DNA from: Novakomyces olei
Taxonomy: Eukaryota
DNA length: 64,000 nt
NCBI GenBank assembly: GCA_016906335.1
Contig: JADEYG010000015.1
Location: 930,001-994,000 of the forward strand
Direction: 5' to 3'
Position numbers and translations under genes: made by a program
Shown here: positions 9,851-60,055 of the stretch, one piece after another
Numbering within the stretch: position 1 is the first letter of the stretch
How the letters are laid out: every line of letters begins with the position of its first letter
The notes under the pieces: model-generated
The model's input: only the letters and a program-made list of their open reading frames with translations
The model's database searches: none
Told to the model about the DNA's origin: nothing

Positions 9851-11501
<1,651 letters not shown>

Positions 11502-20700: not shown

Positions 20701-23646
20701 TTAATTCTCACTCTTGTTATAGGTCAGAGTCACGATGTCGTTATTGCTTTCTTTGGGAGCTTTGCGGTATTCGATATGAAGTATTCCATTCTGGTCTTGC
20801 GGGATTTCGAAACTAATGCTCCAGCTGTCACTAAACGGACTAAATCCTTCATCTGTCGCGTTTCCAATGCTTTCGTTGTCCTTCTTTTCCGTGATCTGCT
20901 CCTCAGACTCTGGGGCCTGATCCTTAGTTTTGTGAGCCTTTTTGGCTTTATCAGGTTCCTTTGGCTCCAAATCCTTTGCTTTTGAATCTGCTGTAGCGTC
21001 TGCCTCTTTCACCTTCTTATCGCTGCCTTGTTCAGCTTGCCGAGTTTTACCCTTAGCCTTTTTTCCGTTATCTTCATCCTCCTTTGACTTCAGTGTATCT
21101 TTCTTTGAAGAAGTTTTTGATTTTTGTTCAGACTCGTTTATGTCTTTTGACTTCTCATCTTTCGTCTTTTCGGGTTTATTAGCTTTCTTTTTCTCTTTCT
21201 GCTGGGACGGCTCTTGCTTTGGCTTCGTCTTTTTAGGTGTTGGCTTTCTGGCTTTTGCCTTGTCTTTTTCATCCTGTCTGTCCTCAGTATTGTCACCAAC
21301 TTCTTTGCTAACAATGTTAATCATTTTGTCCTGAATGCCTTTCATGCGATCTTTAATGACATCTAGTGCTTTGATGGGCTTCGATTCATCAGGGTTCGAA
21401 GTGCCACCTTGTTTCTCTTTTTTGTCTTTGACTCCTTCCTGCTTTTCCTTTTCCTCGGGCTTCTGTTGATGGGGCTTTGAATATTGTTCTTTCTTTTTAT
21501 CCTTTTGCTTGCCTTTGTCTTTCTTGTTTTTTGTCTTATCTTTTGGCTTTGACTTTGGATTTTTTGCGGAGTTTTTGGTGGAGCTAGGATCTTTGCCATT
21601 GGCATCCTTGCCATCGTCATCTTTGCCAGATTCGCTTTGATCCTTGGGCTCTCCTTCGGCCTGTTCATTGTGATTTTCATCGGAGACGTTGCCATCATCA
21701 TCGCCATTGTCGTCACTCTTGTCATTTTCTTCGTTCTCCTCTCGATTCTCAACGCCTTTATCATTTTCACTTTCAGATGCCTCATCGTCGCCATGATCCT
21801 CTTCTTCTTCCTCATCTTTCTGTTCTTTACTTTCTTCGTTTTCGTCTTCATGATCCTCATCTTCCTGCGGTTTACTGTCGTCATCTTTCTCATCTTCTTC
21901 ATCTTCCTCATCTTCCTCATCTTCCTCATCTTCCTCATCTTCCTGTTCTTTACTTTCTTCGTTTTCGTCTTCATGATCCTCATCTTCCTGCGGTTTACTG
22001 TCGTCATCTTTCTCATCTTCATCTTCTTCATCTTCTTCGTCTTCTTCATCTTCTTCATCTTCCTCATCTTCCTGCGGTTTACTGTCGTCATCTTTCTCAT
22101 CTTCTTCATCTTCTTCATCTTCTTCATCTTCTTCATCTTCCTCATCTTCCTGCGGTTTACTGTCGTCATCTTTCTCATCTTCTTCATCTTCTTCATCTTC
22201 TTCATCTTCTTCGTCTTCCTCATCTTCCTCATCTTCCTCATCTTCCTCATCTTCCTCATCTTCCTCATCTTCCTCATCTTCCTCATCTTCCTCATCTTCC
22301 CTATCTTCCCCATCTTCCCCATCTTCCCCATCTTCCCCATCTTCCCCATCTTCCCCATCTTCATCGTCTTCATCATCATCTACCTCCTCATTTTTCTCAT
22401 TTTTCTCATCCTTTTTATGTTCACTCTCGTCACTCTCGTCACTCTCGTCATCCTCGTCATCCTTGCCATCTCCGTTATCTTCTTTGTTCTCATGATCTTT
22501 ATCGCCTACTTCTTCAGCTGGCTGAGGACCGTCTTTCGCTATTTTGCTCTTGGAAGGTTCCTTATCACTATCTTTACCTTTTGCGCCTTTTTTCCCTTCC
22601 TTTGTATTCTTCTCGTCATTGTCTTTGGGACTGCTCTTTGGCTCAGCGAGATTTTGATCTGAAAGTTTGTCTTCGCTTGCTCCTTAAATCAGCATTAGAA
22701 AAGTTATTGAACAACAAGATTATAAAAGATAAAATTTGATATTTAAAGATTCAAATGTCTGTAGAGGCGACTGATCCTACTTTGAGCTTCGCTGTCCATG
22801 GTCGGAATATTTATCTTTGCCGACAGATATCTTATGATCGCAATTATCAGACGGTTTCTAAAGTTGGAGTCCACTTCGAGTGTCTGTTCGAGCTCCTCAA
22901 CATCCTCGGCCAATATGTACGTGCTACTTGGAGGCTCACTTTTGGATTTCTTTTGCCTGCCTTCATCAGGGTCATCGTTATCGTCATGTCCACCTTTGTT
23001 AGATTTGCTGGTTTGATTCTCTTCGTTTCCAGCGAGCTTGGGACTATTTTCGTTGTTATTTGGTTTCAACGAACTAGCGTGATTATTGTTTCTTGCTGTG
23101 CTCTTTGCACTATCGCTGACCGTATCCATACTGTAAGAAAATATAAGTCATTGTTCAGTAAGAAGCTTACCAGTCGTGGTTGATCTACATGCAGAGTCAG
23201 CTAGATGATATATTAAAAGTTTTCGACTAAAATGGATTCATGTTACCTTGACTTTTACCGGGAAAGCGAAACTCTTGCTTTGAATGTTTGTATTCAGAAA
23301 AATCGATTGGACTTTTCTGGCGCAGAACGGGTTCGATCCTGGGTTCTCTAGAGACGAGCAAGAGATCGTTTTCTCTAATATCTTGTTGGCAAAGCTTTGC
23401 AAGCCCAGAATTAGCAATCTTTTATCGGTCGTGCCCTTCTTTGAAGCAATATGAGAGTCTTTGACCTTGTAAATTGGGTGTGTGTTGTCTACGGTTATGC
23501 ATATCAGTATAATTCAATTAAACCTGCTTTCTGGCTTACCCGGATTGAAGTTGAGCTGGTCGATGGCAAGCTTCTAATAATGGTCAGCATAATACCAACT
23601 TTAAACATGGCTAAAGTACCTGTGGACTCTTTTCGCATGAATGCAT
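20701..23646 (-). CDS. Orphan, highly acidic/Lys-rich low-complexity protein (6 predicted exons)
   Basis: ATG 23646 lies downstream of TATATAA (~23705). Five GT-AG introns keep frame (MHSCEKSPQ|KLAID...|DNTHP...|INHDC|MDTVS...|ASEDKL...). The last ~2 kb exon is open in the (EDE)n frame to the stop at 20701. Confidence 0.6.
21790..22460 (-). repeat. Coding GAAGATGAG-type 9-bp repeat with duplicated blocks (poly-EDE)
   Basis: Directly visible on + as (CATCTTCCT)n with repeated CTTCCTGCGGTTTACTGTCGTC units. Confidence 0.9.
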
Positions 23647-38200: not shown

Positions 38201-38688
38201 TGACGAGTGCTTATAAGTAATGAATACGAGCCTGTTTACTTCAATGGGTCTTGATAGACTAGGGTTTTTCGTCATCTGATTTTGCACGATAACATATTAT
38301 ATTACCCGAATAGGAAACGCACAATCTTGACATACTCACGCCCTTCCGTTGAAACATGCAATATTAAGAACTCGAATTTCTAGCAACTTTCCATAAAGTC
38401 AATTTTCCGGTGAAATAATAATAATAGATTCTTTCTGCACCTTAATTCAAGAATCCAATGCATTTTAAAGAGCCGGGCCGATAGGTGTTTATGCTTTGCT
38501 GATTCTTATAGGAAAGTATATCAAGCTTGTGCAGCAGCTGATTACTTAGAAAAAAAAAATGAAGTTTACCCTGGTAATTGTGACTGTCATTGAGAAGACT
38601 ATAAATAGATCTAGATAGAACTATGTTGGCTAACGAAATTGAATACAACACGTTTCAAATTAACACGTTCGAAATTATAGATTCAACA

Positions 38689-38702
38689 GATTAAGAGTCT
38701 GA
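38689..38702 (+). promoter_or_regulatory. Primer-binding site complementary to the tRNA-Lys(CUU) anticodon arm (second copy 43016-43029)
   Basis: GATTAAGAGTCTGA is the reverse complement of TCAGA-CT-CTT-AA-TC and abuts the LTR. Confidence 0.75.
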
Positions 38703-38705
38703 AAC

Positions 38706-41700
38706 ATGAGCAGCACGGGAGTGGTTTTCAAACCTCATGGAAATGGAGATTTGCCGTTCCTGGTTATTCCAAGGTTGACTAACTTGATCGAGTATCCTCA
38801 GTGGAAATCGAAATTGGGCGGAATTCTTGAGACTTACGGACTGGCACACGTGATGCCAAATGCCTCAGTTGAAGGGAATTTTACCGACGATATCGGCTAC
38901 AAATCTACGTCGGCTATGCTTCTCCTTACTCTTAAGGAGATAATTTCGGTTCCAGTCCTTGACGATGTTTGTCAAAAGGCATTGACACCGAAATCACTGC
39001 TCTCCAGCATTGATGCCGTCTTCTTGGATAGAAGATACCGCTTAATCGTTCAAGTTACAGGCGAACTGTATGGACTGCATACACAAGGTTTGGGACAAAT
39101 TGCGGAACTGAATACACGATTTAACAGTCTCATCCTGAGTTTACGCGAGTTGCGAAAGGACCTACATGCTGAAGAAGTTTGTCAAATATACCTAAATATG
39201 ATAAAAGGTTGCGAGTCGCTCAAAAGTGAGATACGTATCTGGGAGCGTTCGAAGAATATTAATCTCAAAGAAGTACAAGAAATTGTACTTGAAGCAATGC
39301 TAGGAGATAATGGAGATAACTTAAGCTCGGAAATGGCGTTGGCAGCCTCTCGTGTTGCGATATGCAAATATTGCAAGAAAAAGGGTCATACCGAAACTAA
39401 CTGCAGATTCAAAAATCGCAGCTGTTTTATTTGTGGTGAGAAAGGTCATTTCAGAGCGGACTGTGACAAAAATTTGAGAAGAACTGATAGTAATAAATTG
39501 TCTGAACATTACTATCGTGTGGCATTTATAAAGTCTTCAAGTATTTCCAAAAGTATCAGCACAAAATGGATTCTTGACTGTGGAGCATCGCAGCACATGA
39601 CGGACAATAAATTGGCCTTCACCAATCTAAAACGTTATAATAGTGATGAACATCATTTTGTACTTGCTGCGGGAAAAGAAAAATTAAGAGCATTGGGATA
39701 CGGAAATATAAGTTTAAATTTGTCTGAGGATAACCAAGTTTTATTGAAAAATGTCTTGTGGGTACCATCGCTTGGTTTCAATTTAATCTCACTTGGCGCA
39801 CTCGATAATGAGCATATATCGGTTTATTTCACAGAAGGCAAAGCTGTACTTTATGACACAACTGGAAGAAAGCTTGGAGACTTTGATAAAGAAAATAATT
39901 TGTATCCTGTTGATACAAAAACTGTTGACCATGCCCCTAAAAAAAAGATGCTTGCACTATATGCTACAAAAAAGGACAGACAAAATCTTTGGCATGAACG
40001 ATTAATGCATTTAAATGAGAGATATATGGTTGAACTCGCCAAAGGACTTGGTGCTGGGAAAATACAACACGAAGTTAATAGAAGCAACTTAAATGTTGGT
40101 TGTGAAAGTTGCATTGAAGGAAAAATGGCGCGCCAGCCATTCCCAGAAGGACGAATGAGAGCAACCGACAAATTTGAATTATTGCACAGTGATGTTTGTG
40201 GGCCGTTTCCAGTATCAGCGCTTGGTCATCGTTATTTTGTCACTTTTATTGATGATAACAGTGGGTACACTTTTGTCAACACAATCAATTATAAATTCGA
40301 AGTGAATGATTGTTTTCAGAATTTGATCAAAATGATTTACACGCAATTTGGAATTAAGGTCAAAAGATTTCGGAGTGACAATGGAGGCGAGTATATTAAT
40401 AAATCTTTCGAAAAGTTTACAAACGAAAATGGCATTGTTCATGAAAAATCCGCACCTTATACGCCGCAGCAAAATGGAGTTGCAGAAAGGGCGAATAGAA
40501 CAATTCTTGACAGGGTCAGGTCTACAATGATTCAAAGGAAGACTCCACAAAAGCTATGGGATGAGGCGGTCAATGCCTGTGTGTATTTGAAAAATCGGAG
40601 CCCAAGCAGAATAATTAATAAAACACCATATGAGATGATATTTGGAAAGCCTCCGTTATTAGATCATTTGAGAGTGTTTGGATGCATTGCATATGTCCTG
40701 AACAAACATAACGATATAAGAAAATTGGATGCTAGAAGTGAACCCCATATCTTTGTAGGGTATCAATCCAATGCTAAAGCTTATCGACTTTGGAATACGT
40801 CAAGGAACAAAATTGTTGTTTCAAGGGATGTAATATTTAAAGAAACAGAATTTTATGAAACTGTGGAAAATAAATCCATCAACAGCTCTGAAAATACAAC
40901 ATTTATTCCAGCACTTGGAAATGATATTTCTACTGTCAATAATTTGCAACAGTCAAATGTGTCTGAATTTCAGCAGGGTATACAAATTGAAAATAACGAG
41001 GAAAATAACGAGGAAAATAACGAGCAAAATGACGAGCAAAATGACGAGCAAATTGACGAGCAAATTGACGAGGAAATTGAAAATTATTCGGACGCATCGG
41101 AACAAAGTTTTGAAGATACTCTAGAAAATATGAGTCCAAAAATTAATGACAATTCTGAATTATCCGAATTGCAAACGGAGGAGCTTGGAACTAAATGGAC
41201 CGACGATGGTAAAAGACGCTCAACCCGAATACGTAGTTTGCCAGGACCATACGATCATGCGCATATTAGTATTGACAGTATAATTGAGCCTACAAATACG
41301 AAACAAGCTAGAGAAAGCGTGCAAGCATCAGAATGGGAATTAGCGATGAAGACAGAATTGGACGCAATGAAAGAAAATGACGCTTGGGTACTAGTGAGCG
41401 CGCCAGAGGGAGCTAATGTCATTGGAAATCGATGGGTCTTTAAAGCTAAAGCAAATGTTGATGGGGAAGTTGGACGTTACCGAGCACGATTGGTTGCAAA
41501 GGGATTTGGTCAGCGTGAGGGAGTAGATTATCAAGCGACATACGCCCCGACCATGTCCTTAGAATCATTTCGCACTTTACTGGCTTATGGAGCAATGCAA
41601 AAATGGAATATTCATCAGATGGATGTTACAACTGCATTCTTAAACGGCGAATTAGAAGAATGCGTTTATATGAAACAACCAGAAGGATTCGACGACGGAA

Positions 41701-42827
41701 CAGGAAAAGTATGCAAATTGAAAAGATCGCTCTACGGTTTAAAACAGGCCCCTAGATGTTGGTACAAAAAGCTTTTTACAGTGTTAATGGAAATTGGATT
41801 TATGGAATCGAAGGTCGAAGACTGTATACTATACAGCTCCCAAGGTAATTTATTTTTGCTTATTTATGTTGATGACATTATTATTATGGGCGAGAATTTA
41901 AATGAAATGAAACGAACAAAGGAAAAATTACAAAGAGCATTTAAGGTCAAAGATTTGGGTGAGATTCATCAATTTCTTGGGATGGAATTTTGTTATGATC
42001 AGAAAATTGGAAATTTGAAAATAAGTCAGAAGGCAGCAATTACAAAAATAATTAAAGAATTCGATTGCTACGACTTGCCTAAAAAACGAATTCCCATAAG
42101 GAATTACGTGGAATTGAATGGGAAACCTATAAACAATGAAAAGTACCGCAAATGGATTGGCATGCTACTTTGGATAAGCAGATGCACTCGGCCAGATATA
42201 TCCTTCGCTGTATCCCACGCAGCAAGATATCAAGAAAAGCCTACAGATGAATGTCTCGAACTGGTTCAATGTATCACGGCTTATTTAAGGGATACAAAAG
42301 ACAAGGGACTGGAATATCAAAGCAATTCGGTTGAACCAGTCATGAAAGTTTATTGCGATGCCGACTACGCAAGTGATAGAGACGAAAGGAAATCCACTTC
42401 GGGAATGGCATTGTTTCTGGGTAATTCATTAATTCATTGGATGTCAACAAAACAAAAAGTTGTTGCGTTATCGACATGCGAGGCTGAATATATAAGTGCT
42501 TGTACGGCGATTGTGCATACATTAGGTCTCTACAACCTGGCCAAGGAGCTTTTAAAAATTGAGTCTCCAATTCGTGTTTGCTCCGACAACAAAAGCGCAA
42601 TTTGTATTGCGCATAAAACAAGCCCAATGAGACGACTAAAGCACCTTGATGTACGATATATGTTTTTGCGCAATTTAACGGAAAACGGCACAGTAATTGT
42701 TGATTATATATCTACAAAAGAACAGCTTGCGGATATTTTAACAAAGCCTTTGTGTAAAAAGATTTTTATACATTTGCGACAAAAACTGGTGAAAGGGGAC
42801 TCTAGAATTGAATCATTACAAGCTTGA
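38706..42827 (+). CDS. Copia Gag-Pol polyprotein, copy 1 (1373 aa)
   Basis: Two CCHC knuckles, protease WILDCGAS, integrase HHCC plus HSDVCGP/SDNGGEY/QQNGVAER, RT YVDD, RNase H ADILTK in copia order. Confidence 0.97.
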   Translation: MSSTGVVFKPHGNGDLPFLVIPRLTNLIEYPQWKSKLGGILETYGLAHVMPNASVEGNFTDDIGYKSTSAMLLLTLKEIISVPVLDDVCQKALTPKSLLSSIDAVFLDRRYRLIVQVTGELYGLHTQGLGQIAELNTRFNSLILSLRELRKDLHAEEVCQIYLNMIKGCESLKSEIRIWERSKNINLKEVQEIVLEAMLGDNGDNLSSEMALAASRVAICKYCKKKGHTETNCRFKNRSCFICGEKGHFRADCDKNLRRTDSNKLSEHYYRVAFIKSSSISKSISTKWILDCGASQHMTDNKLAFTNLKRYNSDEHHFVLAAGKEKLRALGYGNISLNLSEDNQVLLKNVLWVPSLGFNLISLGALDNEHISVYFTEGKAVLYDTTGRKLGDFDKENNLYPVDTKTVDHAPKKKMLALYATKKDRQNLWHERLMHLNERYMVELAKGLGAGKIQHEVNRSNLNVGCESCIEGKMARQPFPEGRMRATDKFELLHSDVCGPFPVSALGHRYFVTFIDDNSGYTFVNTINYKFEVNDCFQNLIKMIYTQFGIKVKRFRSDNGGEYINKSFEKFTNENGIVHEKSAPYTPQQNGVAERANRTILDRVRSTMIQRKTPQKLWDEAVNACVYLKNRSPSRIINKTPYEMIFGKPPLLDHLRVFGCIAYVLNKHNDIRKLDARSEPHIFVGYQSNAKAYRLWNTSRNKIVVSRDVIFKETEFYETVENKSINSSENTTFIPALGNDISTVNNLQQSNVSEFQQGIQIENNEENNEENNEQNDEQNDEQIDEQIDEEIENYSDASEQSFEDTLENMSPKINDNSELSELQTEELGTKWTDDGKRRSTRIRSLPGPYDHAHISIDSIIEPTNTKQARESVQASEWELAMKTELDAMKENDAWVLVSAPEGANVIGNRWVFKAKANVDGEVGRYRARLVAKGFGQREGVDYQATYAPTMSLESFRTLLAYGAMQKWNIHQMDVTTAFLNGELEECVYMKQPEGFDDGTGKVCKLKRSLYGLKQAPRCWYKKLFTVLMEIGFMESKVEDCILYSSQGNLFLLIYVDDIIIMGENLNEMKRTKEKLQRAFKVKDLGEIHQFLGMEFCYDQKIGNLKISQKAAITKIIKEFDCYDLPKKRIPIRNYVELNGKPINNEKYRKWIGMLLWISRCTRPDISFAVSHAARYQEKPTDECLELVQCITAYLRDTKDKGLEYQSNSVEPVMKVYCDADYASDRDERKSTSGMALFLGNSLIHWMSTKQKVVALSTCEAEYISACTAIVHTLGLYNLAKELLKIESPIRVCSDNKSAICIAHKTSPMRRLKHLDVRYMFLRNLTENGTVIVDYISTKEQLADILTKPLCKKIFIHLRQKLVKGDSRIESLQA

Positions 42828-43032
42828 GAGGGAGTATAGGAAAGTATATCAAGCTTGTGCAGCAGCTGATTACTTAGAAAAAAAAATGAAGTTTACCCTG
42901 GTAATTGTGACTGTCATTGAGAAGACTATAAATAGATCTAGATAGAACTATGTTGGCTAACGAAATTGAATACAACACGTTTCAAATTAACACGTTCGAA
43001 ATTATAGATTCAACAGATTAAGAGTCTGAAAC

Positions 43033-46000
43033 ATGAGCAGCACGGGAGTGGTTTTCAAACCTCATGGAAATGGAGATTTGCCGTTCCTGGTTATTCCAAG
43101 GTTGACTAACTTGATCGAGTATCCTCAGTGGAAATCGAAATTGGGCGGAATTCTTGAGACTTACGGACTGGCACACGTGATGCCAAATGCCTCAGTTGAA
43201 GGGAATTTTACCGACGATATCGGCTACAAATCTACGTCGGCTATGCTTCTCCTTACTCTTAAGGAGATAATTTCGGTTCCAGTCCTTGACGATGTTTGTC
43301 AAAAGGCATTGACACCGAAATCACTGCTCTCCAGCATTGATGCCGTCTTCTTGGATAGAAGATACCGCTTAATCGTTCAAGTTACAGGCGAACTGTATGG
43401 ACTGCATACACAAGGTTTGGGACAAATTGCGGAACTGAATACACGATTTAACAGTCTCATCCTGAGTTTACGCGAGTTGCGAAAGGACCTACATGCTGAA
43501 GAAGTTTGTCAAATATACCTAAATATGATAAAAGGTTGCGAGTCGCTCAAAAGTGAGATACGTATCTGGGAGCGTTCGAAGAATATTAATCTCAAAGAAG
43601 TACAAGAAATTGTACTTGAAGCAATGCTAGGAGATAATGGAGATAACTTAAGCTCGGAAATGGCGTTGGCAGCCTCTCGTGTTGCGATATGCAAATATTG
43701 CAAGAAAAAGGGTCATACCGAAACTAACTGCAGATTCAAAAATCGCAGCTGTTTTATTTGTGGTGAGAAAGGTCATTTCAGAGCGGACTGTGACAAAAAT
43801 TTGAGAAGAACTGATAGTAATAAATTGTCTGAACATTACTATCGTGTGGCATTTATAAAGTCTTCAAGTATTTCCAAAAGTATCAGCACAAAATGGATTC
43901 TTGACTGTGGAGCATCGCAGCACATGACGGACAATAAATTGGCCTTCACCAATCTAAAACGTTATAATAGTGATGAACATCATTTTGTACTTGCTGCGGG
44001 AAAAGAAAAATTAAGAGCATTGGGATACGGAAATATAAGTTTAAATTTGTCTGAGGATAACCAAGTTTTATTGAAAAATGTCTTGTGGGTACCATCGCTT
44101 GGTTTCAATTTAATCTCACTTGGCGCACTCGATAATGAGCATATATCGGTTTATTTCACAGAAGGCAAAGCTGTACTTTATGACACAACTGGAAGAAAGC
44201 TTGGAGACTTTGATAAAGAAAATAATTTGTATCCTGTTGATACAAAAACTGTTGACCATGCCCCTAAAAAAAAGATGCTTGCACTATATGCTACAAAAAA
44301 GGACAGACAAAATCTTTGGCATGAACGATTAATGCATTTAAATGAGAGATATATGGTTGAACTCGCCAAAGGACTTGGTGCTGGGAAAATACAACACGAA
44401 GTTAATAGAAGCAACTTAAATGTTGGTTGTGAAAGTTGCATTGAAGGAAAAATGGCGCGCCAGCCATTCCCAGAAGGACGAATGAGAGCAACCGACAAAT
44501 TTGAATTATTGCACAGTGATGTTTGTGGGCCGTTTCCAGTATCAGCGCTTGGTCATCGTTATTTTGTCACTTTTATTGATGATAACAGTGGGTACACTTT
44601 TGTCAACACAATCAATTATAAATTCGAAGTGAATGATTGTTTTCAGAATTTGATCAAAATGATTTACACGCAATTTGGAATTAAGGTCAAAAGATTTCGG
44701 AGTGACAATGGAGGCGAGTATATTAATAAATCTTTCGAAAAGTTTACAAACGAAAATGGCATTGTTCATGAAAAATCCGCACCTTATACGCCGCAGCAAA
44801 ATGGAGTTGCAGAAAGGGCGAATAGAACAATTCTTGACAGGGTCAGGTCTACAATGATTCAAAGGAAGACTCCACAAAAGCTATGGGATGAGGCGGTCAA
44901 TGCCTGTGTGTATTTGAAAAATCGGAGCCCAAGCAGAATAATTAATAAAACACCATATGAGATGATATTTGGAAAGCCTCCGTTATTAGATCATTTGAGA
45001 GTGTTTGGATGCATTGCATATGTCCTGAACAAACATAACGATATAAGAAAATTGGATGCTAGAAGTGAACCCCATATCTTTGTAGGGTATCAATCCAATG
45101 CTAAAGCTTATCGACTTTGGAATACGTCAAGGAACAAAATTGTTGTTTCAAGGGATGTAATATTTAAAGAAACAGAATTTTATGAAACTGTGGAAAATAA
45201 ATCCATCAACAGCTCTGAAAATACAACATTTATTCCAGCACTTGGAAATGATATTTCTACTGTCAATAATTTGCAACAGTCAAATGTGTCTGAATTTCAG
45301 CAGGGTATACAAATTGAAAATAACGAGGAAAATAACGAGGAAAATAACGAGCAAAATGACGAGCAAAATGACGAGCAAATTGACGAGCAAATTGACGAGG
45401 AAATTGAAAATTATTCGGACGCATCGGAACAAAGTTTTGAAGATACTCTAGAAAATATGAGTCCAAAAATTAATGACAATTCTGAATTATCCGAATTGCA
45501 AACGGAGGAGCTTGGAACTAAATGGACCGACGATGGTAAAAGACGCTCAACCCGAATACGTAGTTTGCCAGGACCATACGATCATGCGCATATTAGTATT
45601 GACAGTATAATTGAGCCTACAAATACGAAACAAGCTAGAGAAAGCGTGCAAGCATCAGAATGGGAATTAGCGATGAAGACAGAATTGGACGCAATGAAAG
45701 AAAATGACGCTTGGGTACTAGTGAGCGCGCCAGAGGGAGCTAATGTCATTGGAAATCGATGGGTCTTTAAAGCTAAAGCAAATGTTGATGGGGAAGTTGG
45801 ACGTTACCGAGCACGATTGGTTGCAAAGGGATTTGGTCAGCGTGAGGGAGTAGATTATCAAGCGACATACGCCCCGACCATGTCCTTAGAATCATTTCGC
45901 ACTTTACTGGCTTATGGAGCAATGCAAAAATGGAATATTCATCAGATGGATGTTACAACTGCATTCTTAAACGGCGAATTAGAAGAATGCGTTTATATGA

Positions 46001-47154
46001 AACAACCAGAAGGATTCGACGACGGAACAGGAAAAGTATGCAAATTGAAAAGATCGCTCTACGGTTTAAAACAGGCCCCTAGATGTTGGTACAAAAAGCT
46101 TTTTACAGTGTTAATGGAAATTGGATTTATGGAATCGAAGGTCGAAGACTGTATACTATACAGCTCCCAAGGTAATTTATTTTTGCTTATTTATGTTGAT
46201 GACATTATTATTATGGGCGAGAATTTAAATGAAATGAAACGAACAAAGGAAAAATTACAAAGAGCATTTAAGGTCAAAGATTTGGGTGAGATTCATCAAT
46301 TTCTTGGGATGGAATTTTGTTATGATCAGAAAATTGGAAATTTGAAAATAAGTCAGAAGGCAGCAATTACAAAAATAATTAAAGAATTCGATTGCTACGA
46401 CTTGCCTAAAAAACGAATTCCCATAAGGAATTACGTGGAATTGAATGGGAAACCTATAAACAATGAAAAGTACCGCAAATGGATTGGCATGCTACTTTGG
46501 ATAAGCAGATGCACTCGGCCAGATATATCCTTCGCTGTATCCCACGCAGCAAGATATCAAGAAAAGCCTACAGATGAATGTCTCGAACTGGTTCAATGTA
46601 TCACGGCTTATTTAAGGGATACAAAAGACAAGGGACTGGAATATCAAAGCAATTCGGTTGAACCAGTCATGAAAGTTTATTGCGATGCCGACTACGCAAG
46701 TGATAGAGACGAAAGGAAATCCACTTCGGGAATGGCATTGTTTCTGGGTAATTCATTAATTCATTGGATGTCAACAAAACAAAAAGTTGTTGCGTTATCG
46801 ACATGCGAGGCTGAATATATAAGTGCTTGTACGGCGATTGTGCATACATTAGGTCTCTACAACCTGGCCAAGGAGCTTTTAAAAATTGAGTCTCCAATTC
46901 GTGTTTGCTCCGACAACAAAAGCGCAATTTGTATTGCGCATAAAACAAGCCCAATGAGACGACTAAAGCACCTTGATGTACGATATATGTTTTTGCGCAA
47001 TTTAACGGAAAACGGCACAGTAATTGTTGATTATATATCTACAAAAGAACAGCTTGCGGATATTTTAACAAAGCCTTTGTGTAAAAAGATTTTTATACAT
47101 TTGCGACAAAAACTGGTGAAAGGGGACTCTAGAATTGAATCATTACAAGCTTGA
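43033..47154 (+). CDS. Copia Gag-Pol polyprotein, copy 2 (same translation as copy 1)
   Basis: ORF track gives the same 1373-aa sequence, offset 4327 bp. Confidence 0.97.
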   Translation: MSSTGVVFKPHGNGDLPFLVIPRLTNLIEYPQWKSKLGGILETYGLAHVMPNASVEGNFTDDIGYKSTSAMLLLTLKEIISVPVLDDVCQKALTPKSLLSSIDAVFLDRRYRLIVQVTGELYGLHTQGLGQIAELNTRFNSLILSLRELRKDLHAEEVCQIYLNMIKGCESLKSEIRIWERSKNINLKEVQEIVLEAMLGDNGDNLSSEMALAASRVAICKYCKKKGHTETNCRFKNRSCFICGEKGHFRADCDKNLRRTDSNKLSEHYYRVAFIKSSSISKSISTKWILDCGASQHMTDNKLAFTNLKRYNSDEHHFVLAAGKEKLRALGYGNISLNLSEDNQVLLKNVLWVPSLGFNLISLGALDNEHISVYFTEGKAVLYDTTGRKLGDFDKENNLYPVDTKTVDHAPKKKMLALYATKKDRQNLWHERLMHLNERYMVELAKGLGAGKIQHEVNRSNLNVGCESCIEGKMARQPFPEGRMRATDKFELLHSDVCGPFPVSALGHRYFVTFIDDNSGYTFVNTINYKFEVNDCFQNLIKMIYTQFGIKVKRFRSDNGGEYINKSFEKFTNENGIVHEKSAPYTPQQNGVAERANRTILDRVRSTMIQRKTPQKLWDEAVNACVYLKNRSPSRIINKTPYEMIFGKPPLLDHLRVFGCIAYVLNKHNDIRKLDARSEPHIFVGYQSNAKAYRLWNTSRNKIVVSRDVIFKETEFYETVENKSINSSENTTFIPALGNDISTVNNLQQSNVSEFQQGIQIENNEENNEENNEQNDEQNDEQIDEQIDEEIENYSDASEQSFEDTLENMSPKINDNSELSELQTEELGTKWTDDGKRRSTRIRSLPGPYDHAHISIDSIIEPTNTKQARESVQASEWELAMKTELDAMKENDAWVLVSAPEGANVIGNRWVFKAKANVDGEVGRYRARLVAKGFGQREGVDYQATYAPTMSLESFRTLLAYGAMQKWNIHQMDVTTAFLNGELEECVYMKQPEGFDDGTGKVCKLKRSLYGLKQAPRCWYKKLFTVLMEIGFMESKVEDCILYSSQGNLFLLIYVDDIIIMGENLNEMKRTKEKLQRAFKVKDLGEIHQFLGMEFCYDQKIGNLKISQKAAITKIIKEFDCYDLPKKRIPIRNYVELNGKPINNEKYRKWIGMLLWISRCTRPDISFAVSHAARYQEKPTDECLELVQCITAYLRDTKDKGLEYQSNSVEPVMKVYCDADYASDRDERKSTSGMALFLGNSLIHWMSTKQKVVALSTCEAEYISACTAIVHTLGLYNLAKELLKIESPIRVCSDNKSAICIAHKTSPMRRLKHLDVRYMFLRNLTENGTVIVDYISTKEQLADILTKPLCKKIFIHLRQKLVKGDSRIESLQA

Positions 47155-47474
47155 GAGGGAGTATAGGAAAGTATATCAAGCTTGTGCAGCAGCTGATTAC
47201 TTAGAAAAAAAAAATGAAGTTTACCCTGGTAATTGTGACTGTCATTGAGAAGACTATAAATAGATCTAGATAGAACTATGTTGGCTAACGAAATTGAATA
47301 CAACACGTTTCAAATTAACACGTTCGAAATTATAGATTCAACAATTCTTACATATAAATCATTAAATTGGCGTTTTTTTTTTTAATTTATTATAGTTAAC
47401 ATACTCACTAAAATTTTCCTAGAAATAAATGTTTCTAGAAACTTATATTCGTAGGAAAGCAACCTTATCCAATA

Positions 47475-48742: not shown

Positions 48743-48954
48743 TGTTGAATCTAGTAAATTTGTTTTGAACGTGTTAAATGGAATAAATGTTGTATTTAAT
48801 TTTCGTTAATTATAGTGATTCTAGCTAAGTCTATTTATAGTCTGCCGGTCTGCCATCGCATTTCTCACGATAAAGTTTATCCCACTTCTCACGGTAAACT
48901 ATATTTCTATAATTAGTTATTAGCCGCTGCACAAGCTTGATTTACTTTCCCATA
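48743..48954 (-). mobile_element. Diverged solo LTR related to the dimer LTR
   Basis: Minus strand TATGGGAAAGTAAATCAAGCTTGTGCAGC...TAGATTCAACA; flanks CTAAG/CTAAA (near-TSD). Confidence 0.8.
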
Positions 48955-49289
48955 CTAAAGAGATATTAAATTATAATTAATGTTATTTACTAAGCTTGAA
49001 AGCAAACAGATATTGCAAACTTAATAAGTATTATTACGATATTAAATGATATTACACTTATTATGAGGAGGATTTACTGCATTCAATAAAAACTAAGCTT
49101 ATTTGTTGAATTATTGAATTTATTCTTGAAATTCGATTTATTTCTAACCAATATGACTAATCTATTCTTTATTTAAAAAACTTTGATATTTTATTATATT
49201 AATATAAATACTTTATTATATCAATATCAATATGAATATCAATATCAATAATTTATAAATAATAAATATTATTATCAAATTTAATATTA

Positions 49290-49493: not shown

Positions 49494-50207
49494 TTATTCA
49501 TACAAATACTGATACTAGAATAGTTGAACTTGCAGGCAAATATTGCCATTATCAACGTGTATATTAGCTTATTTAGTTTTAAAAAAAAAATGATTAAATC
49601 TAGTATAAGTGATAAGTTCTGCAGTTAAATAACAATGGATAGCATCAATTGTAACGGTAGAAACAGTTACACAGCTACAAGAGACTCTGCTAAAGAACTG
49701 GCTAGTCTCTATGGACACGGGGACATGGACGAGAATATAGATTTACGTGTTCTCATTAAATTGCCTAATTGGGACTATAAACTACTCGCTTATCGTCTCA
49801 AGGAAGCTTATTGGGACAACCCAAATTTTTAATGCAGTAAACTCGCAATATGCGAAAGGGGATTTATCAAGCATATGGATTGTAAAAACAAGAAGGTAAA
49901 TTATTGCAAATCTTTTAAAAAGAATTATACTATTTACGTAAATCAATATTTAGCTTGTTTCGTAAGAATTTGGGGTTCAATAAATTATAAATATACTGAA
50001 GCAATGAGAATTAAAAGGACAATTTAGTAAATTTGAATTTGAAGATTTGACATCTAGAACTATTTAATTTATCTTTATACTTTTACTAAATCTTTGTACT
50101 TCTAAATTAGGAGAAAATACAAAGATACGTCTTTGAGATGTTCAGTATATAATATATATATATGATTATCATTACTATACCAATTTTATGCATTTATATA
50201 TGACAAT

Positions 50208-50398
50208 TATTGAACTTGTAGAATTTTGTTGAACCTGTTTGTTTGAATAAGTGTCGCATTCAGTTTTCGTTGACTATCTTCTACGTTCTATCTAGCTGTA
50301 TTTATAGCTAAATCCTAACGACTGTTTGTGCCTCGGTTATTGTTTCGTTTCTATTATTACTAATTTCCCACAATACAAGCCTGGCCTACTTTCCTACA
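50208..50398 (-). mobile_element. Solo LTR, family D (distant relative of the dimer LTR)
   Basis: Minus strand TGTAGGAAAGTAGG...GTTCAATA; matches 54259-54450 (CGACTGTTTGTGCCTCGGTTA, TTATTACTAATTTCCCACA). Confidence 0.75.
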
Positions 50399-50910
50399 AA
50401 TATGACTGATCGTGCGCGGTTTTCATTTTAATACTGAACTAATTAAAATCGGTATTTTTAAATCAAATTAGACTGAGGTCTAAAAATAATAAGTATGATT
50501 GTAGTTAAAAATGTTGATTGAACGCGCAGTGAAATAAATTGTATCCATTTGCATTACCTATCAATGATCTATTTCTTGTATTCGTAGTTTATGCTTTAAT
50601 CGATTGTATGTGACAAACTTGATTTTCATGAGGAACTATTTTTTTTTTCTTCTGCAGATTTGTAATTACTGAAGTTATCACTCTTAATGCTGAAGAAGCG
50701 TATACCTGCTCTGCTTCTCACGTTGACAGAGCAATTACTTTTTGTTTTGATGGTGCCCTATATGTTAGTAACGTCCCAAGATGTTGTCATTGCCGATGTA
50801 AAGCGCTTTTCAAGTTTGTCGTTGGCATGAGGGTAGACATTATATTATTTTGACAGTTCACACCAACGACTTTGTTTCTCGCCAGTAGGCGTAGTAACCT
50901 TTAATTGGCT

Positions 50911-51440: not shown

Positions 51441-51630
<190 letters not shown>

Positions 51631-53129
51631 TCAAGGCAAATACTATGTCTGAGTGCTGTGACGAATAGTAGATTACTTCTAAATGAGAGAGTCGTGATCG
51701 GTCGTTTATGATCCCTCAAATCATCTGAAATCGTAGCATACGCAAAAGACGCGGCAGAATTGCATTCTTATTCAAAGTATTCTAGCTCTAAGCTAGCCAG
51801 CTGAAATTTGCATCGCTTATAATCAAACTTAGAAGTATTGAAATGTTTTTGCAGATGCCATTCTTGCTCGCTTATAAAAAAATGTTTAAGAAAACTTCCA
51901 CTGGAACTCTTCTAATCGGAAATGCTAACAAATTTGGACTTTATTCTTAGAATGTTATACAAAAAACAAATGAAAAGCGAAAATTCAAAATCTAATAATA
52001 CAACTTGTAGTTATTCTTATGGCGATCAATTTGTAATTTAATATTGATGATTGAGCTGGTGTCTTGGCTACTCTATTTATGGATGTTATCGCCATTTTGG
52101 CTTAGACGTATTCATCAGAGAAACTTGGGAGTGCCCTAAACAGAGAAAAAAAACTGAATTGGTTGGCCACCAATCAGAAAACATACTATATAGTTTTTCA
52201 TTATATATTCTTTCCTAAAGGTAGTTTTCAAAAACCTCTGAACAATCATATCATTTTTTGCCAATTGATCTATTTTGCTTTCGTTAAACAATTATTTAAT
52301 TAATCGCGCCAGCACTTTCTCTTTAGATTGATATTCTATCATATCTGGTTTTGATAGTCATTATTTCGTTAATTTTCCTCTTCAGCTTGTCTACGTCGTA
52401 TTTTAAAAGCAAAATTTTGGTCTGACAATATTTGCCGCCATTTTGACTCACTCACCTTACGTTCATTGCCTGTCATCATTTTTTTTCCCTATCTTCTGTT
52501 TATATTTAGTTTACGAAAAGTTTATTACGACAGGATTTATAAAACTTTTTCGAATAACCCTTTTCCGTATAACACCAATCAAATATTCTCCAATTGAAAC
52601 TACTTGACATAATTGTTCCCGCGATGTATATCTCCTAAGCAAAAAAAAAAAGGACTTCGTCGGTTTAAGTTCATTGTTTTCTTTTTAATTTTCAGCCTTT
52701 TTGTATATTCATCGTTTCATTAAAAAGCATTTGAGATAACCCCCTTAAAACTAGCAACTCACCGAGTGTGCTGGTTGATAGCTCAATTCATATTTGGGCT
52801 TGGTCTTTGTTCTGTTGACATTCGTCTGCCCTTTATTCAATTTTGCTTTTCATCTTTCTGTTTCTAGCTTTTTTGTGTATCTGCATTTTCAACAAATCGT
52901 TATCTTTTCGTTTCGGTTCGAAATAATGCATAATATGCCTTATGATGAAAGTATTGGCACGAGCACGACGAGTTTGCTGATCTCTTTGCTGGCATTATAA
53001 CAGCCATATGACGGATTAATTTGTCTCAAAATTAAAGAGTGAACATTCTTATTTTGATTTGCAATTTAAGCCCTATATTTTTAATTCCATTCCAGCATAA
53101 AGCATTATTAGTTGTCACAAAATTTAACA

Positions 53130-53905
53130 AGCAAATATTGTTTCCTAAACTTTAATACATCCGAATGAGACGTATATGAGTCAGCTTGTCAAATGTCAGT
53201 GCTGGAGAAGTACAAGAGAAAGTCGATTTAAGCAATCTTGGCGTATAATGTCAAAGTTTTTCGAAGGGAAAATGGCGCATCAACATTTACAGAAGGACCT
53301 AAACGAGCAGCTAAAAAATTTCAACTTCCGGGTAGTGATGTTTGCGGACCATGTCAGTCTCACACATTCTTCTAGTTGCTAGACAACAAGAATAAAGTGA
53401 ATAGCTGCAGTTAATTTGATCGAAACTCAATTGGGCATTAATGTTTTTAAGTGACAATGAGAGAATTTGTGTTAACAATGTTTGAAAAGACTTATGGAGC
53501 TCCAAGAAATCATTCATGAGGTTCCCGCGTATTATACTCCACAGCAAAATGGAGTTGCTGGAAAAGGCAATTCGAACAACTACGAACAGAGTTAGAGCCG
53601 CAATAATTCAAAGAAACGTGCCGAATAATTATTGGGACGAAGTCACTAATGCATGCATTTATGTTAAAAACTAAAGTCCATCCAGAACAGTCAACGGATT
53701 ATCTTATGGAACTGTATTTAAAAAGGCGCCGCTGTTGGACTATTCGATAGCGTTCTGATGCAATGTTTATGTTTTTGAAAACCATAATGATTTAAGAAAT
53801 CATGAGACAAGAATTGAACTAAAATTATTTGTAGGCTACCAATTGAATACAAAAGCATACCGAATATGGAGTATATCGAAAAATTAAATGACCTTTAAAG
53901 AGATG
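53130..53905 (+). pseudogene. Decayed copia integrase fragment related to the dimer family
   Basis: EGKMA, SDVCGP, YTPQQNGVA, LWDEVTNACIYVKN*SP, FVGYQLNTKAYRIW with stops and frameshifts. Confidence 0.85.
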
Positions 53906-54258
53906 CTGTTTTGTATTACAAAAAGGGCAGCTGTTTCAACTTGAGATAAAAATTAGCCGACGGCTTTAGAGAAACAAATTTGTGCTCGTTGCTGAAAATA
54001 GGCTGAATAAATTCGGCACCGAAGATAAAGTGTTTGAACGCATTTGTACATCTCCCATTGCCCTAGCAAAATGACATCGTTTTAAACAACTAATGTATAT
54101 TAACAAAAACTATATGGCTTGACTTGCGACTGCACTTGCTGCTGATCTAAAACAATAGGGTGGATAGTAATATAGGGTCTTGACTAGGTTGTGTTAATAT
54201 TGATTACATCACTGGATATCCAAAATTGATAAGATATTTAAGTTTTGTAGGTATGCTT

Positions 54259-54450
54259 TATTGAACTTGTAAAATTTTGTTTAAACGTGTTTGTTCGAAT
54301 AAGTGTTGTATTCAGTTTGTCCTTAACTATCTGCAGTTTATTTAGCTATATCTAGAGCTAAAATTCTAACCGACTGTTTGTGCCTCGGTTAAAGATTCGT
54401 TTCAATTATTACTAATTTCCCACACCACGTGCTTGACCCACCTTCGAACA
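54259..54450 (-). mobile_element. Solo LTR, family D
   Basis: Matches 50208-50398; flanks TGCTT/TGCCT (near-TSD). Confidence 0.75.
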
Positions 54451-55872
54451 TGCCTTTGTAACGAAAATGGCAGATTAGCTATTACCTGAGCGTCAACTAA
54501 GAGCAATAAATAGACGTCTGTGGGGTACTTACTAGTATAGTATTTTTCCTGATTGGCTGCCAGCCTACTCAGTTTTGTTTTATACTTAGAGACAGAAATT
54601 TCCAAGCCACTCTGATTGCGAGAACGTCTATCAACAGACCAGTTAAACAGCAGCCTTACCAACAATTAGCAATCACAAATTTCTCATAAAATAAACGACT
54701 ACAACTCGTTTCACCACTTGTCATTAATTGTCTTCTTTGATGACGACTACAGACCAGTCACAAACGCGTAAGTGGTCTAAATAACAAATATGAACCCAAC
54801 CATAATTTACACGATTTGATTAATTTACTCAAATTCCAATTCAGTGTCAATTTTAAACGAAATGTAAGCGGCACTAAAGGAGGATTTTTTGATAAAGTTC
54901 TCATATGTATTTACATAAAAGTAAGTATCAATGAGCTGTCGCATCGTAAATATATCTGTTGTAATCAAACAAAAAGATTCATCGTAAATCAATATTTTCA
55001 GTCAAAAATGTTGGAAGTTATTTGTTTATAAAAAGGGCGAATATCTTAAACGAAAAATTTTTGACTGCTTTTAATTAGTTACTTTATTAAGTGCTTTTAT
55101 AGATTGTTTACCAAACCTCATTGCCAAACCAACACGTCTCGTAAAATTGGGAAGTTGCTGCGCCTGGCTATCCCAGCCTGCTAAGCGTCATTTTCCAACA
55201 ATTGAAGCAACATATCGGCTTTTCGTTTTAATTTCCCAAAACCAGTGTTATGGGTTTCTCTAAACAAGCCAATTAAAAGTTTCTACAACGAGTTTAAGTA
55301 TAAGCATAGCAAAGCCTACAGGCCAAAAAAAAACTATGTAAACTCTATGTTTATTTTTTTTATCTTGGAAAGCATATATGCTGTAAATGTTTGATTAACC
55401 CTTATTTCCAGTTGTGCATATCACGTTTAATAATTTTCTAATAGATATTAGAGTAAAATGCTCTGATGGAATCGAATCAATGCTAATAGCCAGCCAATCA
55501 AGTTGGCATTCTCACCACTAATTTAAATCATTTAAATAATTTACAGATTTATTTATCTAGTTTATCCAATCTATTTAATTTGAAATTTTTAATATTTGTT
55601 TTCTTACATTTATTAAATTATATAAATAAATTGAATTATGAAATAAATAAATTAAATATTAAATATATTTGTTTATGTTAAAGTTGAGTTTTATAAGTCA
55701 GTAAATTAGCTTGAATGTCACCTGGCCTGAATCTGGGTGCTACCTGTACTTATATAGTTTTCTATCTAAATCACTAAACATAGATCAATCCTCAGTATTA
55801 TTTTGATTATTTCCAACAATTTCCAACATCCCCTCCTAATCAAAATATTCCTCCTTATTTTTTTTTTGTTAA

Positions 55873-58800
55873 TTAATTTGTATTTTCAATTTTCATGTAT
55901 TCTCTGAACTTTAGAAACTTCTCACCTTTAAGCTGTTTTGTTAATCCATCTGCTTTCATATCCTCAGATCTTATCCACTTAACAGTGGCATTTCCCTTTT
56001 CCACATTGTCTTTCACTAGATAGAATTTTAATTCATGGTGTTTTGCACCTCTTGCAACTCCTGTAATCTTGGTTAGTTTCACACATGCGACATTATCGCA
56101 GTACAAAAATAATTTAATTGGTTTGTTTTCCATCTCTTCAATGACATGTTTTATAAACAGTGCCTTACTCAGTCCTGCGTACATAGCCATGTATTCAGCG
56201 TCCATCGTGCTGATTGCAACAAGACCTTGCTGCTCTGAACTCCAGGTTACTGGCCCATTGTCCCCACCAATAGAAATAGAATATCCAGTTCTAGATTTCC
56301 TATTAAGGGGATCCATGGCAAAATCGGCGTCCGTATAGACCTGCAGATCTAAATCTCCTCTTCTCTCATATTTTAATACATGATTTTTAGTCTCAATTAG
56401 ATAATTAATTATGAATTGAATCCCACGCATGTGAGAGCTTCTTGGTTCTCCACAGAACTTACTCAAGAGCCTCACAGCGTATGTAATGTCAGGCCTGGTC
56501 CATATACTTAAATACAGTAATTTTCCTATTATTTTCCTGTATTCAGTTTGCTCAATCAGATCTCCATTATTATTATAAAAATCTTGTATATCAATTGGCA
56601 GCGGACATTGTTGTTTTCGGCCACAAACATATTTTTGAAATTCATGTAATTTTTCAATGAAACTCTCCTGACTTAGGGTCATGTAGTTCTTCTCAATGTT
56701 AATTTTTATTCCCTGAAAATATCCAATATTTCCAAGCTCGTTTAATTTGAAACAATTCCTCAGCCTTTCTTCAATTAGCTTTGCGCCTCCTGGCGTCAAT
56801 TCCATAATAAGTAGATCATCCACGTATATAAGGATAGCTACATGTTTCCCCATCAGAACCCCAGTATCTGATTTTAGGCTTACTAAGGAACAATCTTTCA
56901 ATTCTTCGATTAGCTTCCTATTCCACGCCCTTGGGGCCTGTTTCAAGCCATAGAGACTTTTCTTTAGCAGACAAACCTCCTTGTTACTATCCCTATCAAT
57001 TCCTTCTGGGATTTCCATAAATATTTGCTCCTCTAGCTCTCCATATAGAAAAGCCGTTGCTATGTCATACTGGTAAATTCGTCTTTCATTATTAAAGCCT
57101 AAATAAAGGAAGGTCTTAATCGTATCTGAGGAAGGAACAGGTGCGTATGTTTCATTAAAGTCGATGCCAGGAATTTGAGTAAATCCTCTGGCTACCAACC
57201 TGGCCTTGTATTTTGTAATATCATTTTTATCATTTCTTTTAATTTTAAAGACCCATTTTGAGTCCACAGTATTAATATTTTTAGGCCTTTTAATTATTCT
57301 CCATACACCATGTTCTTCTAACGAGTTTAGCTCAGACGTTATCGCTTCCTTCCAGTATTTCGAGTCACTCGAATTGAGTGCCTCGCTGACATTACTTGGC
57401 TCTATGTTGGAGTATAATATATTACTTGGAATCTCTGTTTCTTCTGCATTTATTTCTTGTGTAGCATCTTCATAGTGTTCTGGTTCATCAATATTATTAT
57501 TATTATTGTCGATCTCGTTCTCCACGTTTGTTAATTCTTCCAGAATAGGTATATCAGCCAGACTAATAATTTTATTATGCAGATCCTTATCATTATTTCC
57601 AGTAATTCCAGTATTATATATTATCTCAGCACAAGTTTTGTTCGTAATAAATTTAGCGTCTCTCGAGGACGTTTCATTTCTAGTTCTTAGATCATAGAAT
57701 CTGTACCCCTTTTGTAATGTAGAATTTCCAAGGTACATCATTCTTTTGATTCTAGAACCTAGTTTTCCTTTAGCAAGGGGGTCTCTGACCAATGCCAGAC
57801 AGTCAAATGGCTTGTTGTCTTTGACATTTACTGATCTACCACTCCATATCTCCATAGGGGATTTTTCGAGCCCTTTTACTGGCTGCTGATTACGCAGATA
57901 TATTGCTTGCTGAAAAGCATCTTCCCAAAATTCATCTTTTAATTCAGAATCAATTAGTAGACATCGGGCAATCTCCTGTATTGTCCGGTTCATTCTCTCA
58001 GCAACTCCATTTTGCTCTGGAGTGTGGGGTACCGAAGTCTCGTGTCGAATACCCTGACTAGACAGGTAATCCTCGAACTCGCGGTTCACGTACTCTCGTC
58101 CGTTATCAGATCTGACAGTTTTCACGTGACTTCCCTTTTGAGTTTCAAAAAGTTTAAAAACCTTTTGGAGCACACCCGATGTCTCTCCCTTCCGAATTAG
58201 GAAAGATCCAAAACACATTTTTGTAAACTCGTCCACAACGAGTAGTAACCATCTGTTTCCCTTTCGGGAAGGTGGCAAGGGTCCCATTACATCAGTATGC
58301 ACTAATTCACCGATTTCCGTAACCGTCCCCTCTGTCAGGGGTTGCTTAGAAAGGTGCTAGGAGCACCTGAGTAAGCAACTTCGTAGTTTAGTTTAGTTAG
58401 TTTATTTAGTTGTATTGTGGGAAGTTGCTTAGAGTAGCGCTTGGAGCGCAGACTCTAGCACTTCTACAATAAGTTAGTTACTTTAGTAGTTTCGTAGAGT
58501 GGGATCTTCGGCAAGTAACGAGCCGAGCCCAAGTATAAGAAGAGGAGTTCTTCTACTGGGTTCGGGGCGTTACAACAACCAAGGTTCCGCTTAATATAAG
58601 TGTCTTGAGATTAGTTCTTCTATCTGCCTATCCTTTGCTACTCCCTGTCAAGGCCAACGTGTGATCTTGGCCGACTTAAGATTACTTTGTATTGAGTCAC
58701 CCCCTAACACCCTCCGATGTTCCAAAGGGACTTCGGTGAATTTTTGCAGCAATACACACCTCACAATTTTTGATAATATCGTAATCGTCTTTTGTAATTT

Positions 58801-60055
58801 TTCCGATAATTCCCCTTTTGGACATTTCAACCATTTTTGTCACAGACGGGTGCCCCTGATTCCGATGAACCTCCATTATCTCCGATCCCTGTGCCATCAT
58901 AAGATTTTCTATTATTATTTCTCCTTTAATGCACATTTCTCCGGTAGCCAATCGGGTTATATTACTAATAAATTTCCTTTCTCGCGTAATAATCCCTTTA
59001 TTTAGATTGACATCAAAGCCTCGATCAATCAGCACACCCAAGGATAGCAGGTTGCACGGTGCACATTCCACCAGATAAACATTTTTAATTGTTGCACGCG
59101 TCCCTTCCAATATAATTATTATGTTTCCGGAAATAGATACTTTAATTTTCTCTCCACTTGCAACAATTAAATTTTTATTGACTTCTTTCGTATCCGTAAG
59201 CCAATCAGAACGGTTTGTTATGTGCACACTGGCCCCTGAATCCAAAATCCAATAATCTTTATTGACATTACATTGAGACATTTTCGGATAATTTTCAAAC
59301 TTTGTCATTAAAACTGTGTCTTCGGAGAAATTTCGCTTAAAATTATCTCGCTTAAAGTCTTTCTTTTTCCCATTAAGGAACCAACAGTCCTTTTTCACAT
59401 GCCCAAGCTTCTTGCAATGATGGCATCTCACACTAGACTTTCCATTTTTGGCATAATTAACGATTTTTGTTTCATCGCCCACTTCGATTACTTGTTTGCC
59501 CAATTGAATACTGTGATCTTTTAGCATTCTCCTTATTTTGATCGGAGTAATTCCAGGAGAATTCTTCTGGGCCGTTACCGGCAAGTAATCCATTGGCAAA
59601 TTTCTCACACGATTTATTATTTTCTCTTGGTCAGACATTCGTCCACCAGCTTGTCCGTATGCATATTCCAATTCGTCAATTTTAAACAAGTAATTATCCA
59701 TGTCTTCGTTGTTTTTCAATTTTATTGTAGCCAGTTCAACTCGTAATTCGGCGAGATATTCCTCGCTATTGATGGAGAACATCTCCTCGAGTAGCTCGTA
59801 AGCGTCTGTTCCAGTCAGACACTGGTCAACGCTGTAAATTAATTGAGGCGACACGGTCGACATAATTAGACTTTTTAATTGATTTTGCTTCTGATCGTAC
59901 TCCTCTGTCTGAGTCCTAGTTCCGTGTAATTTCAGCAATTTTTCACCGTCAAGTCCAAGGGTCTTTCTGTGCGTCTGTAGCGCTGCCCTCCATGACAGAA
60001 AATTGTCTGGCGTCAAGGTCGGTATTCTCAGATTTTCGTAAATTTTAGAAGCCAT
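55873..60055 (-). pseudogene. Copia gag-pol split by the 58333-58709 insertion
   Basis: CHHCKKLGHVKKDC, WILDSGAS, HTDVMGP, SDNGREY, YVDD, ADGLTK. Removing the insert and one TSD restores ...PFGTSEGTVTEIGELVHTD... Confidence 0.93.
58333..58709. mobile_element. Nested 377-bp solo LTR, TSD CCCTC
   Basis: TGTCAGGGG...CCCCTAACA ends; CCCTC at 58328-58332 and 58710-58714. Confidence 0.9.

Follow-up and report, generated by a model that had tools for sequence, protein, structure and literature searches.

A putative primer binding site for truncated tRNA-Lys(CUU) in a tandem Ty1/copia retrotransposon

The window, by which we mean the whole stretch of 64 kb that was analysed, contains a head-to-tail dimer of a Ty1/copia retrotransposon (38507-47343) in the order LTR-int-LTR-int-LTR, the middle LTR being common to both units. 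The repeat period is 4327/4328 bases and the unit is compact (4.3 kb). The features of the dimer, and the putative primer binding site (PBS) of a second copia element in its neighbourhood, are the following:

38502-38506, plus strand: 5' target-site duplication (TSD) ATTCT; the same ATTCT is found at 47344-47348, right after LTR 3
38507-38688, plus strand: LTR 1, 182 bp, TATAGG...CAACA, 100% identical to LTR 3; LTR 2 differs by one A
38600-38608, plus strand: TATA-like TATAAATAG inside LTR 1
38689-38702, plus strand: putative PBS GATTAAGAGTCTGA, adjoining the end of LTR 1; its reverse complement corresponds to nt 27-40 of tRNA-Lys(CUU)
38706-42827, plus strand: intact gag-PR-IN-RT-RH ORF of 1373 aa (P0001), from ORF and Pfam
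42826-42834, plus strand: polypurine tract GAGAGGGAG, which shares bases with the stop codon and adjoins LTR 2 on its 5' side; function predicted from position and composition
42835-43015, plus strand: LTR 2, common to both tandem units, from the LTR alignment
43016-43029, plus strand: second copy of the PBS, the same GATTAAGAGTCTGA, after LTR 2
43033-47154, plus strand: second ORF of 1373 aa, identical to the first
47153-47161, plus strand: second polypurine tract, same letters, offset 4327
47162-47343, plus strand: LTR 3, from the LTR alignment
47344-47348, plus strand: 3' TSD ATTCT
60112-60122, minus strand: putative PBS GGTTATGAGCC of the neighbouring copia element, iMet anticodon arm, starting where its 5' LTR ends

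The three LTRs are identical bar the length of one A-run, and the internal regions of the two units differ at 0/4145 positions. The Pfam matches on P0001 are zf-CCHC (239-255), Pol_BBD (288-369), gag_pre-integrs (398-474), rve (490-587), SH3_retrovirus (646-717) and RVT_2 (891-1131). This order of domains (CCHC, protease region, integrase, RT, RNase H) fits the Ty1/copia group, which is also the label, given there without taxa, of P0001 in the protein atlas; the translated sequence shows YVDD and motifs of the D,D,E type as well. Since the ORF is uninterrupted, with its domains in order, and both the LTRs and the units are identical, the element looks intact and young; judged from its sequence, it looks like a functional Ty1/copia retrotransposon that was active very recently. 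The base-for-base identity of the units could be the product of recombination, of the integration of a multimer, or an effect of assembly. At the termini of the LTRs the 3' CA is present, whereas the 5' end reads TA (TATAGG) where Ty1/copia elements have TG. The same start, TAT(A/G)GGAA, is shared by the LTRs of the dimer (38507, 42835, 47162) and those of two related families (48956, minus; 34991, plus; 48503, minus; 51144, minus). It is an unusual 5' terminus for integrase recognition in place of the usual TG; the LTR of the neighbouring iMet-type element begins TGTTGG.

The dimer lies in a stretch of ~28 kb (window ~33200-61000) that is gene-free, has a lower GC content (32-39%) and is packed with copia material. 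Besides the dimer it holds a solo LTR (48743-48956, minus) with 68% identity to the dimer LTRs, three LTRs of another family, an LTR pair (50207-50393 and 54258-54445) that is 82% identical, an integrase fragment (53063-53884) and the iMet-type element (55676-60275). As a cluster of copia elements of ~28 kb it resembles the retrotransposon-cluster centromeres of some yeasts. At 50840-50890 (minus) 6 nt separate the end of an LTR of the second family from TGGCGAGAAAC, possibly a conventional site for a tRNA 3' end. The window further contains a long (ATCA)n microsatellite (51441-51630), an AT-rich array with a period of 8 nt (10051-10700) and, inside long ORFs, coding repeat arrays with periods of 24 nt and 9 nt (6747-7900 and 21674-22400).

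The junction between LTR and internal region, window 38689-38705, reads GATTAAGAGTCTGAAAC. LTR 1 and LTR 2 both end in ...GATTCAACA and continue with GATTAAGAGTCTGA-AAC-ATG, whereas LTR 3 shares the ending ...GATTCAACA and then runs into the flank, ATTCT.... Because LTR 3 continues into the flank with a TSD of 5 bp, the boundary between LTR and internal region is fixed to the base. The 14-mer GATTAAGAGTCTGA begins at the first internal base, with no gap after the CA of the LTR, and the ATG follows 3 nt further on, so that the leader between LTR and ATG is 17 nt long. TGG is absent at the junction and no TGG-type site was found between LTR and ORF; another, which the ORF contains at a distance of 29 nt from the LTR, was ruled out as a PBS by its position. 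The reverse complement of the 14-mer, TCAGACTCTTAATC, consists of a stem strand TCAGA, a loop CT-CTT-AA and a TC that closes back onto the GA. It has the features of an anticodon arm: a loop CTCTTAA with T33 and A37, the anticodon CTT, and the pairs G30-C40 and A31-T39, the portion nt 30-40 reading GACTCTTAATC. The first-pass annotation had described an LTR followed by a non-TGG site complementary to an anticodon arm TCAGA-CT-CTT-AA-TC, and this is what the sequence holds. In gag, 226 nt downstream, a small palindrome contains ACTCTTAA (38928-38935), which equals a portion of the tRNA-like complement of the PBS and could pair with the PBS within the RNA; a match of 8 nt in 400 nt is not far from chance.

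The assignment of the arm to tRNA-Lys(CUU), also made in that annotation, holds against real tRNAs. In the human tRNA-Lys(CTT) whose sequence is given in PMC8216282 (Methods), the stretch ...TGAGACTCTTAATCTCA... is identical to the reverse-complemented PBS at 13/14 positions, 12 of them contiguous (nt 29-40). The full arm, TCAGACTCTTAATCTGA (14/14), is present at 18 loci in viral contigs. Eleven of these lie within tRNA-Lys(ctt) genes called by ARAGORN, which were found by searching for the arm itself and show only that such arms exist, and the other 7/18 lie in no called tRNA. Three of the 11 genes, from giant-virus contigs, look eukaryote-like by eye. The printed eukaryotic tRNA backs nt 29-40 only, and for the outer TG (nt 27-28 of the arm) the support comes from the viral tRNA genes. 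In the 64-kb window itself no tRNA gene was called by ARAGORN, nor by Rfam at gathering scores. A tRNA cluster Asn-Leu-Lys(ctt)-Arg(tct)(-Ile) is conserved among the giant-virus contigs L004, L008 and L009.

The register of the site is that of elements primed by an iMet half. The neighbouring element has LTRs (60275-60123 and 55828-55676, minus) of the form TGTTGG...TTTAACA that are 100% identical over 153 bp, and its ...TTTAACA is followed at once by GGTTATGAGCC (60122-60112), the only iMet-type site in the window. Both sites begin directly at the LTR end, so the equality of register to which the first reading had drawn attention is borne out. The coding region of the neighbour (55676-60275, minus) is not continuous: one ORF of 452 aa and one of 809 aa lie on either side of a gap of ~395 nt (58303-58696). 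This may be a young but broken copy, or the region may be read in some other way. The protein of the iMet-type neighbour is ~34% identical to P0001. Further relatives of the polyprotein were collected from metagenomes, where 546 of 557 candidates were confirmed; the best 80 of the 546 were fetched (28-37% identity), and LTR pairs could be delimited in 32 of these 80 loci. Among the same best 80 of 546, GGTTATGGGCC follows an LTR-like ...A end in 15, and 7 of those 15 read GGTTATGGGCCCAG, the exact complement, over a span of 14 nt, of nt 27-40 of the printed human iMet. A TGGTATCAGAGC-like motif of the 3'-end type occurs in 35 of the best 80 of 546, and GATTAAGAGTC, the 11-mer of the Lys-type site, in 0/80. 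The iMet-type sites in 15/80 relatives indicate that a truncated tRNA in this part of Copia usually has a footprint of 14 nt, running from nt 40 back to nt 27. In all features open to sequence comparison, the site in the window fits the truncated-tRNA class, in which the PBS directly follows the LTR and has complementarity with the anticodon stem-loop (nt ~27-40) of a cytoplasmic tRNA. On the sequences compared, it has the same footprint on another tRNA, the register nt 27-40 apparently being kept when the tRNA changes.

Truncated tRNA primers are well represented among copia-like elements. The first-pass annotation had stated that copia and Ty5 are primed by an iMet fragment and Candida Tca2 from an internal site of tRNA-Arg. 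Both are in print, the latter for Tca2/gamma and tRNA-Arg(UCU). For Ty5 and the copia element of Drosophila the primer is a fragment of the iMet anticodon stem-loop (cited in PMC10886601 and bioRxiv 10.1101/2025.04.25.647736). The element in the window resembles these in that the PBS adjoins the LTR and is complementary to an arm ending at nt 40, and also in its single gag-pol ORF, its short LTRs ending in CAACA and its TSD of 5 bp. It differs in its tRNA, Lys(CUU) versus iMet, and in the start of its LTR, TATAGG versus TGTTG. Membership of the Ty5 family, which uses iMet, was rejected: the complement of the anticodon is AAG (Lys CUU), not of the CAT/ATG type. The families of C. albicans use internal regions of tRNA-Arg(UCU) and iMet (PMC4139406). 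Here the likeness to Tca2/gamma lies in the use of a non-initiator tRNA, through its internal anticodon-arm region, by a Ty1/copia element of a yeast, the difference being Arg(UCU) versus Lys(CUU). In rust fungi, Copia and Helenus elements use the tRNAs Tyr, Ile, Asp/Asn and iMet through their anticodon loops (PMC10886601). The plant lineages use 1/2 tRNA-Met and 1/2 tRNA-Ile (PMC6317226), and the plant elements Bianca, Osser, Bryco and Gymco-II have anticodon-loop or '1/2 tRNA' primers (PMC10886601, PMC6317226). According to these sources, a switch of tRNA with the truncated-tRNA mode kept is recurrent in Copia, and tRNA-Lys is absent from the types listed in the main texts of PMC10886601 and PMC6317226.

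A tRNA-Lys site has nevertheless been printed before. Donnart et al. 2017 (BMC Genomics 18:410, PMC5445492) give the PBS of FunCo1 as ATTAAGAGTCT and describe it as the complement of an internal part of tRNA-Lys. Window 38690-38700 reads ATTAAGAGTCT, so that the site can be written as G-ATTAAGAGTCT-GA and holds the printed FunCo1 PBS letter for letter. The proposal that a tRNA-Lys primer is not commonly described must therefore be given up, at least as a claim of novelty, since Donnart et al. 2017 already print such a PBS. In the literature text search, PMC5445492 is the only text in which ATTAAGAGTCT or the name FunCo1 was tied to a retrotransposon PBS. A search for the exact GATTAAGAGTC, GACTCTTAATC or TCAGACTCTTAATC gave no paper that by its title deals with a retrotransposon PBS, the FunCo1 11-mer being printed without the leading G. 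The tRNA-Lys arrangement is in print and barely discussed, with no bench test in the literature that was found. The same search yielded no physical primer fragment for any element of the tRNA-Lys type.

FunCo1 and the element in the window share the PBS, the Copia superfamily and an ascomycete host; by its PBS the element is a candidate member of the FunCo1 clade. The text of PMC5445492 describes FunCo1 from 270 fungal species, in ~40% of Pezizomycotina genomes and almost only in Pezizomycotina, and also mentions 2 copies in Lipomyces starkeyi. The best identities of P0001 are 42-43%, with none above 43% and no named fungal protein among the best 120 matches of either protein search; in viral contigs 57 pattern matches to close relatives were obtained, of which 0 were confirmed. 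The genes of the host lie in long uninterrupted ORFs, and the host looks like a compact yeast-like ascomycete. Its PDA1 is ~64-70% identical to proteins across several classes of Pezizomycotina, one further protein reaching 78%. Among sequencing runs, the search listed three DNA entries from 2 studies that contain 0.80-0.91 of the words, and no RNA entry. These PDA1 identities, together with the uninterrupted ORFs, suggest that the host may lie outside the groups to which FunCo1 has been mapped.

On these grounds we consider it highly probable that the site is a minus-strand PBS for a 3'-truncated tRNA-Lys(CUU) primer. We infer that the tRNA-Lys(CUU) of the host would carry the arm, that a cut would fall after nt 40 and that priming would take place. 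In this model the start of the element's RNA would lie within the 5' LTR, on the downstream side of its TATA-like box. The primer would be a 5' fragment of the cytoplasmic host tRNA-Lys(CUU) that ends at nt 40, with two bases of the anticodon stem's 3' strand included, and that anneals through nt 27-40 to GATTAAGAGTCTGA. The reverse transcriptase of the element would extend the 3' end of the fragment into U5-R to give minus-strand strong-stop DNA, and the polypurine tract GAGAGGGAG would prime the plus strand. The mode would be that of a '3'-truncated tRNA', as in copia, Ty5 and Tca2, with a different tRNA. It had also been proposed that such priming ties retrotransposition to the production of tRNA halves. 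Stress-induced tRNA halves are cut in the anticodon loop, whereas a fragment that fits this PBS would have to reach nt 40, which belongs to the stem's 3' strand. Halves cut in the loop would be without the 3'-terminal bases that pair with the first bases of the PBS, so the proposed tie is weak and amounts to speculation.

The same mismatch of ends bears on an alternative in which tRNA-Lys(CUU) would anneal as a whole molecule and receive its nick within the complex only, for instance from the RNase H of the element, or in which the pairing also serves packaging or the control of translation, in either case without a pre-existing pool of fragments. Here an end at nt 40, unlike the ends of loop-cut halves, would arise in place; moreover, the PBS is only 3 nt from the start codon, so that an annealed tRNA would occlude initiation. 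This alternative is a variant of the same primer identity, from which the sequence gives nothing to separate it, and we regard it as improbable.

That the 14 bases are a mere short leader before the ATG, with priming elsewhere or by another RNA, is less probable still. With a leader of 17 nt any sequence in that place adjoins the LTR, and when up to 3 mismatches are allowed the 14-mer turns up in the window about as often as expected (9 matches versus 8.2 expected in 64 kb). None of these matches besides the PBS adjoins an LTR end, and no degenerate copies of the PBS (up to 3 mismatches) were found beside other LTR remnants in the window. Without mismatches, the 11-mer GATTAAGAGTC is found nowhere in the 64 kb but in the two PBS copies. 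Because the internal regions differ at none of the 4145 positions these copies are not independent, and they count as one recent event. Generic anticodon-arm 11-mers, defined by 2 closing pairs, T33, Y32 and R37, occupy 351 of 63,989 positions of the window (0.55%). By our own arithmetic, once the register is fixed, the chance that 11 nt match a given tRNA arm exactly is ~4^-11 per tRNA species, and exact matches of 11-12 nt to a particular tRNA are rarer than generic arms by orders of magnitude. Against a chance leader, the match is exact over 12 contiguous bases of a real tRNA-Lys(CTT) and stands in the register of the iMet-half elements, the same 11-mer is printed as the FunCo1 PBS (PMC5445492), and a TGG-type site is absent between LTR and ORF. 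Finally, a Tf1-like self-priming, in which the 5' end of the transcript folds back on the site and is cleaved to form the primer, does occur in fungal and plant LTR elements (PMC6317226, PMC5445492), but it is hardly credible here: complementarity between LTR and PBS extends over 5 nt at most, which is chance level (the modal value in shuffled LTRs, 293/500), and the complement of the 11-mer is absent from the LTR even at one mismatch, so that the element was not placed with the Tf1 type.

If priming is indeed by a truncated tRNA-Lys(CUU), Lys(CUU) joins a list of truncated-tRNA primers that comprises iMet, Arg(UCU), Ile(AAU) and Asn(GUU) (elsewhere in the same paper Asp). Nearly all primers of this kind decode ANN codons, the exception being Tyr. 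The ANN-reading tRNAs share a C32-U33...A37-A38 loop and the t6A37 modification. Primer switching may therefore be constrained, in that the step that cuts after nt 40, or the selection of the tRNA, would recognise the loop type of ANN readers; we put this forward as a tentative idea that is rather unlikely to be right. We know of no nuclease that has been identified as the one that makes the copia/Ty5 primer. If the idea were true, the Lys-type and iMet-type elements, lying ~13 kb apart, would form a natural system in which to find it.

The element in the window may have reached the Lys primer independently of FunCo1. Should its host prove amenable to genetics, such an intact copy, its LTRs identical, could serve as material for a primer experiment, which to our knowledge has never been done for any non-iMet truncated-tRNA primer. 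The finding adds an apparently active and compact copia element of the tRNA-Lys type in a yeast-like ascomycete, with little import beyond annotation. For annotation it does matter: LTR pipelines that seek only TGG-type sites or iMet halves would report 'no PBS' for elements of this type.
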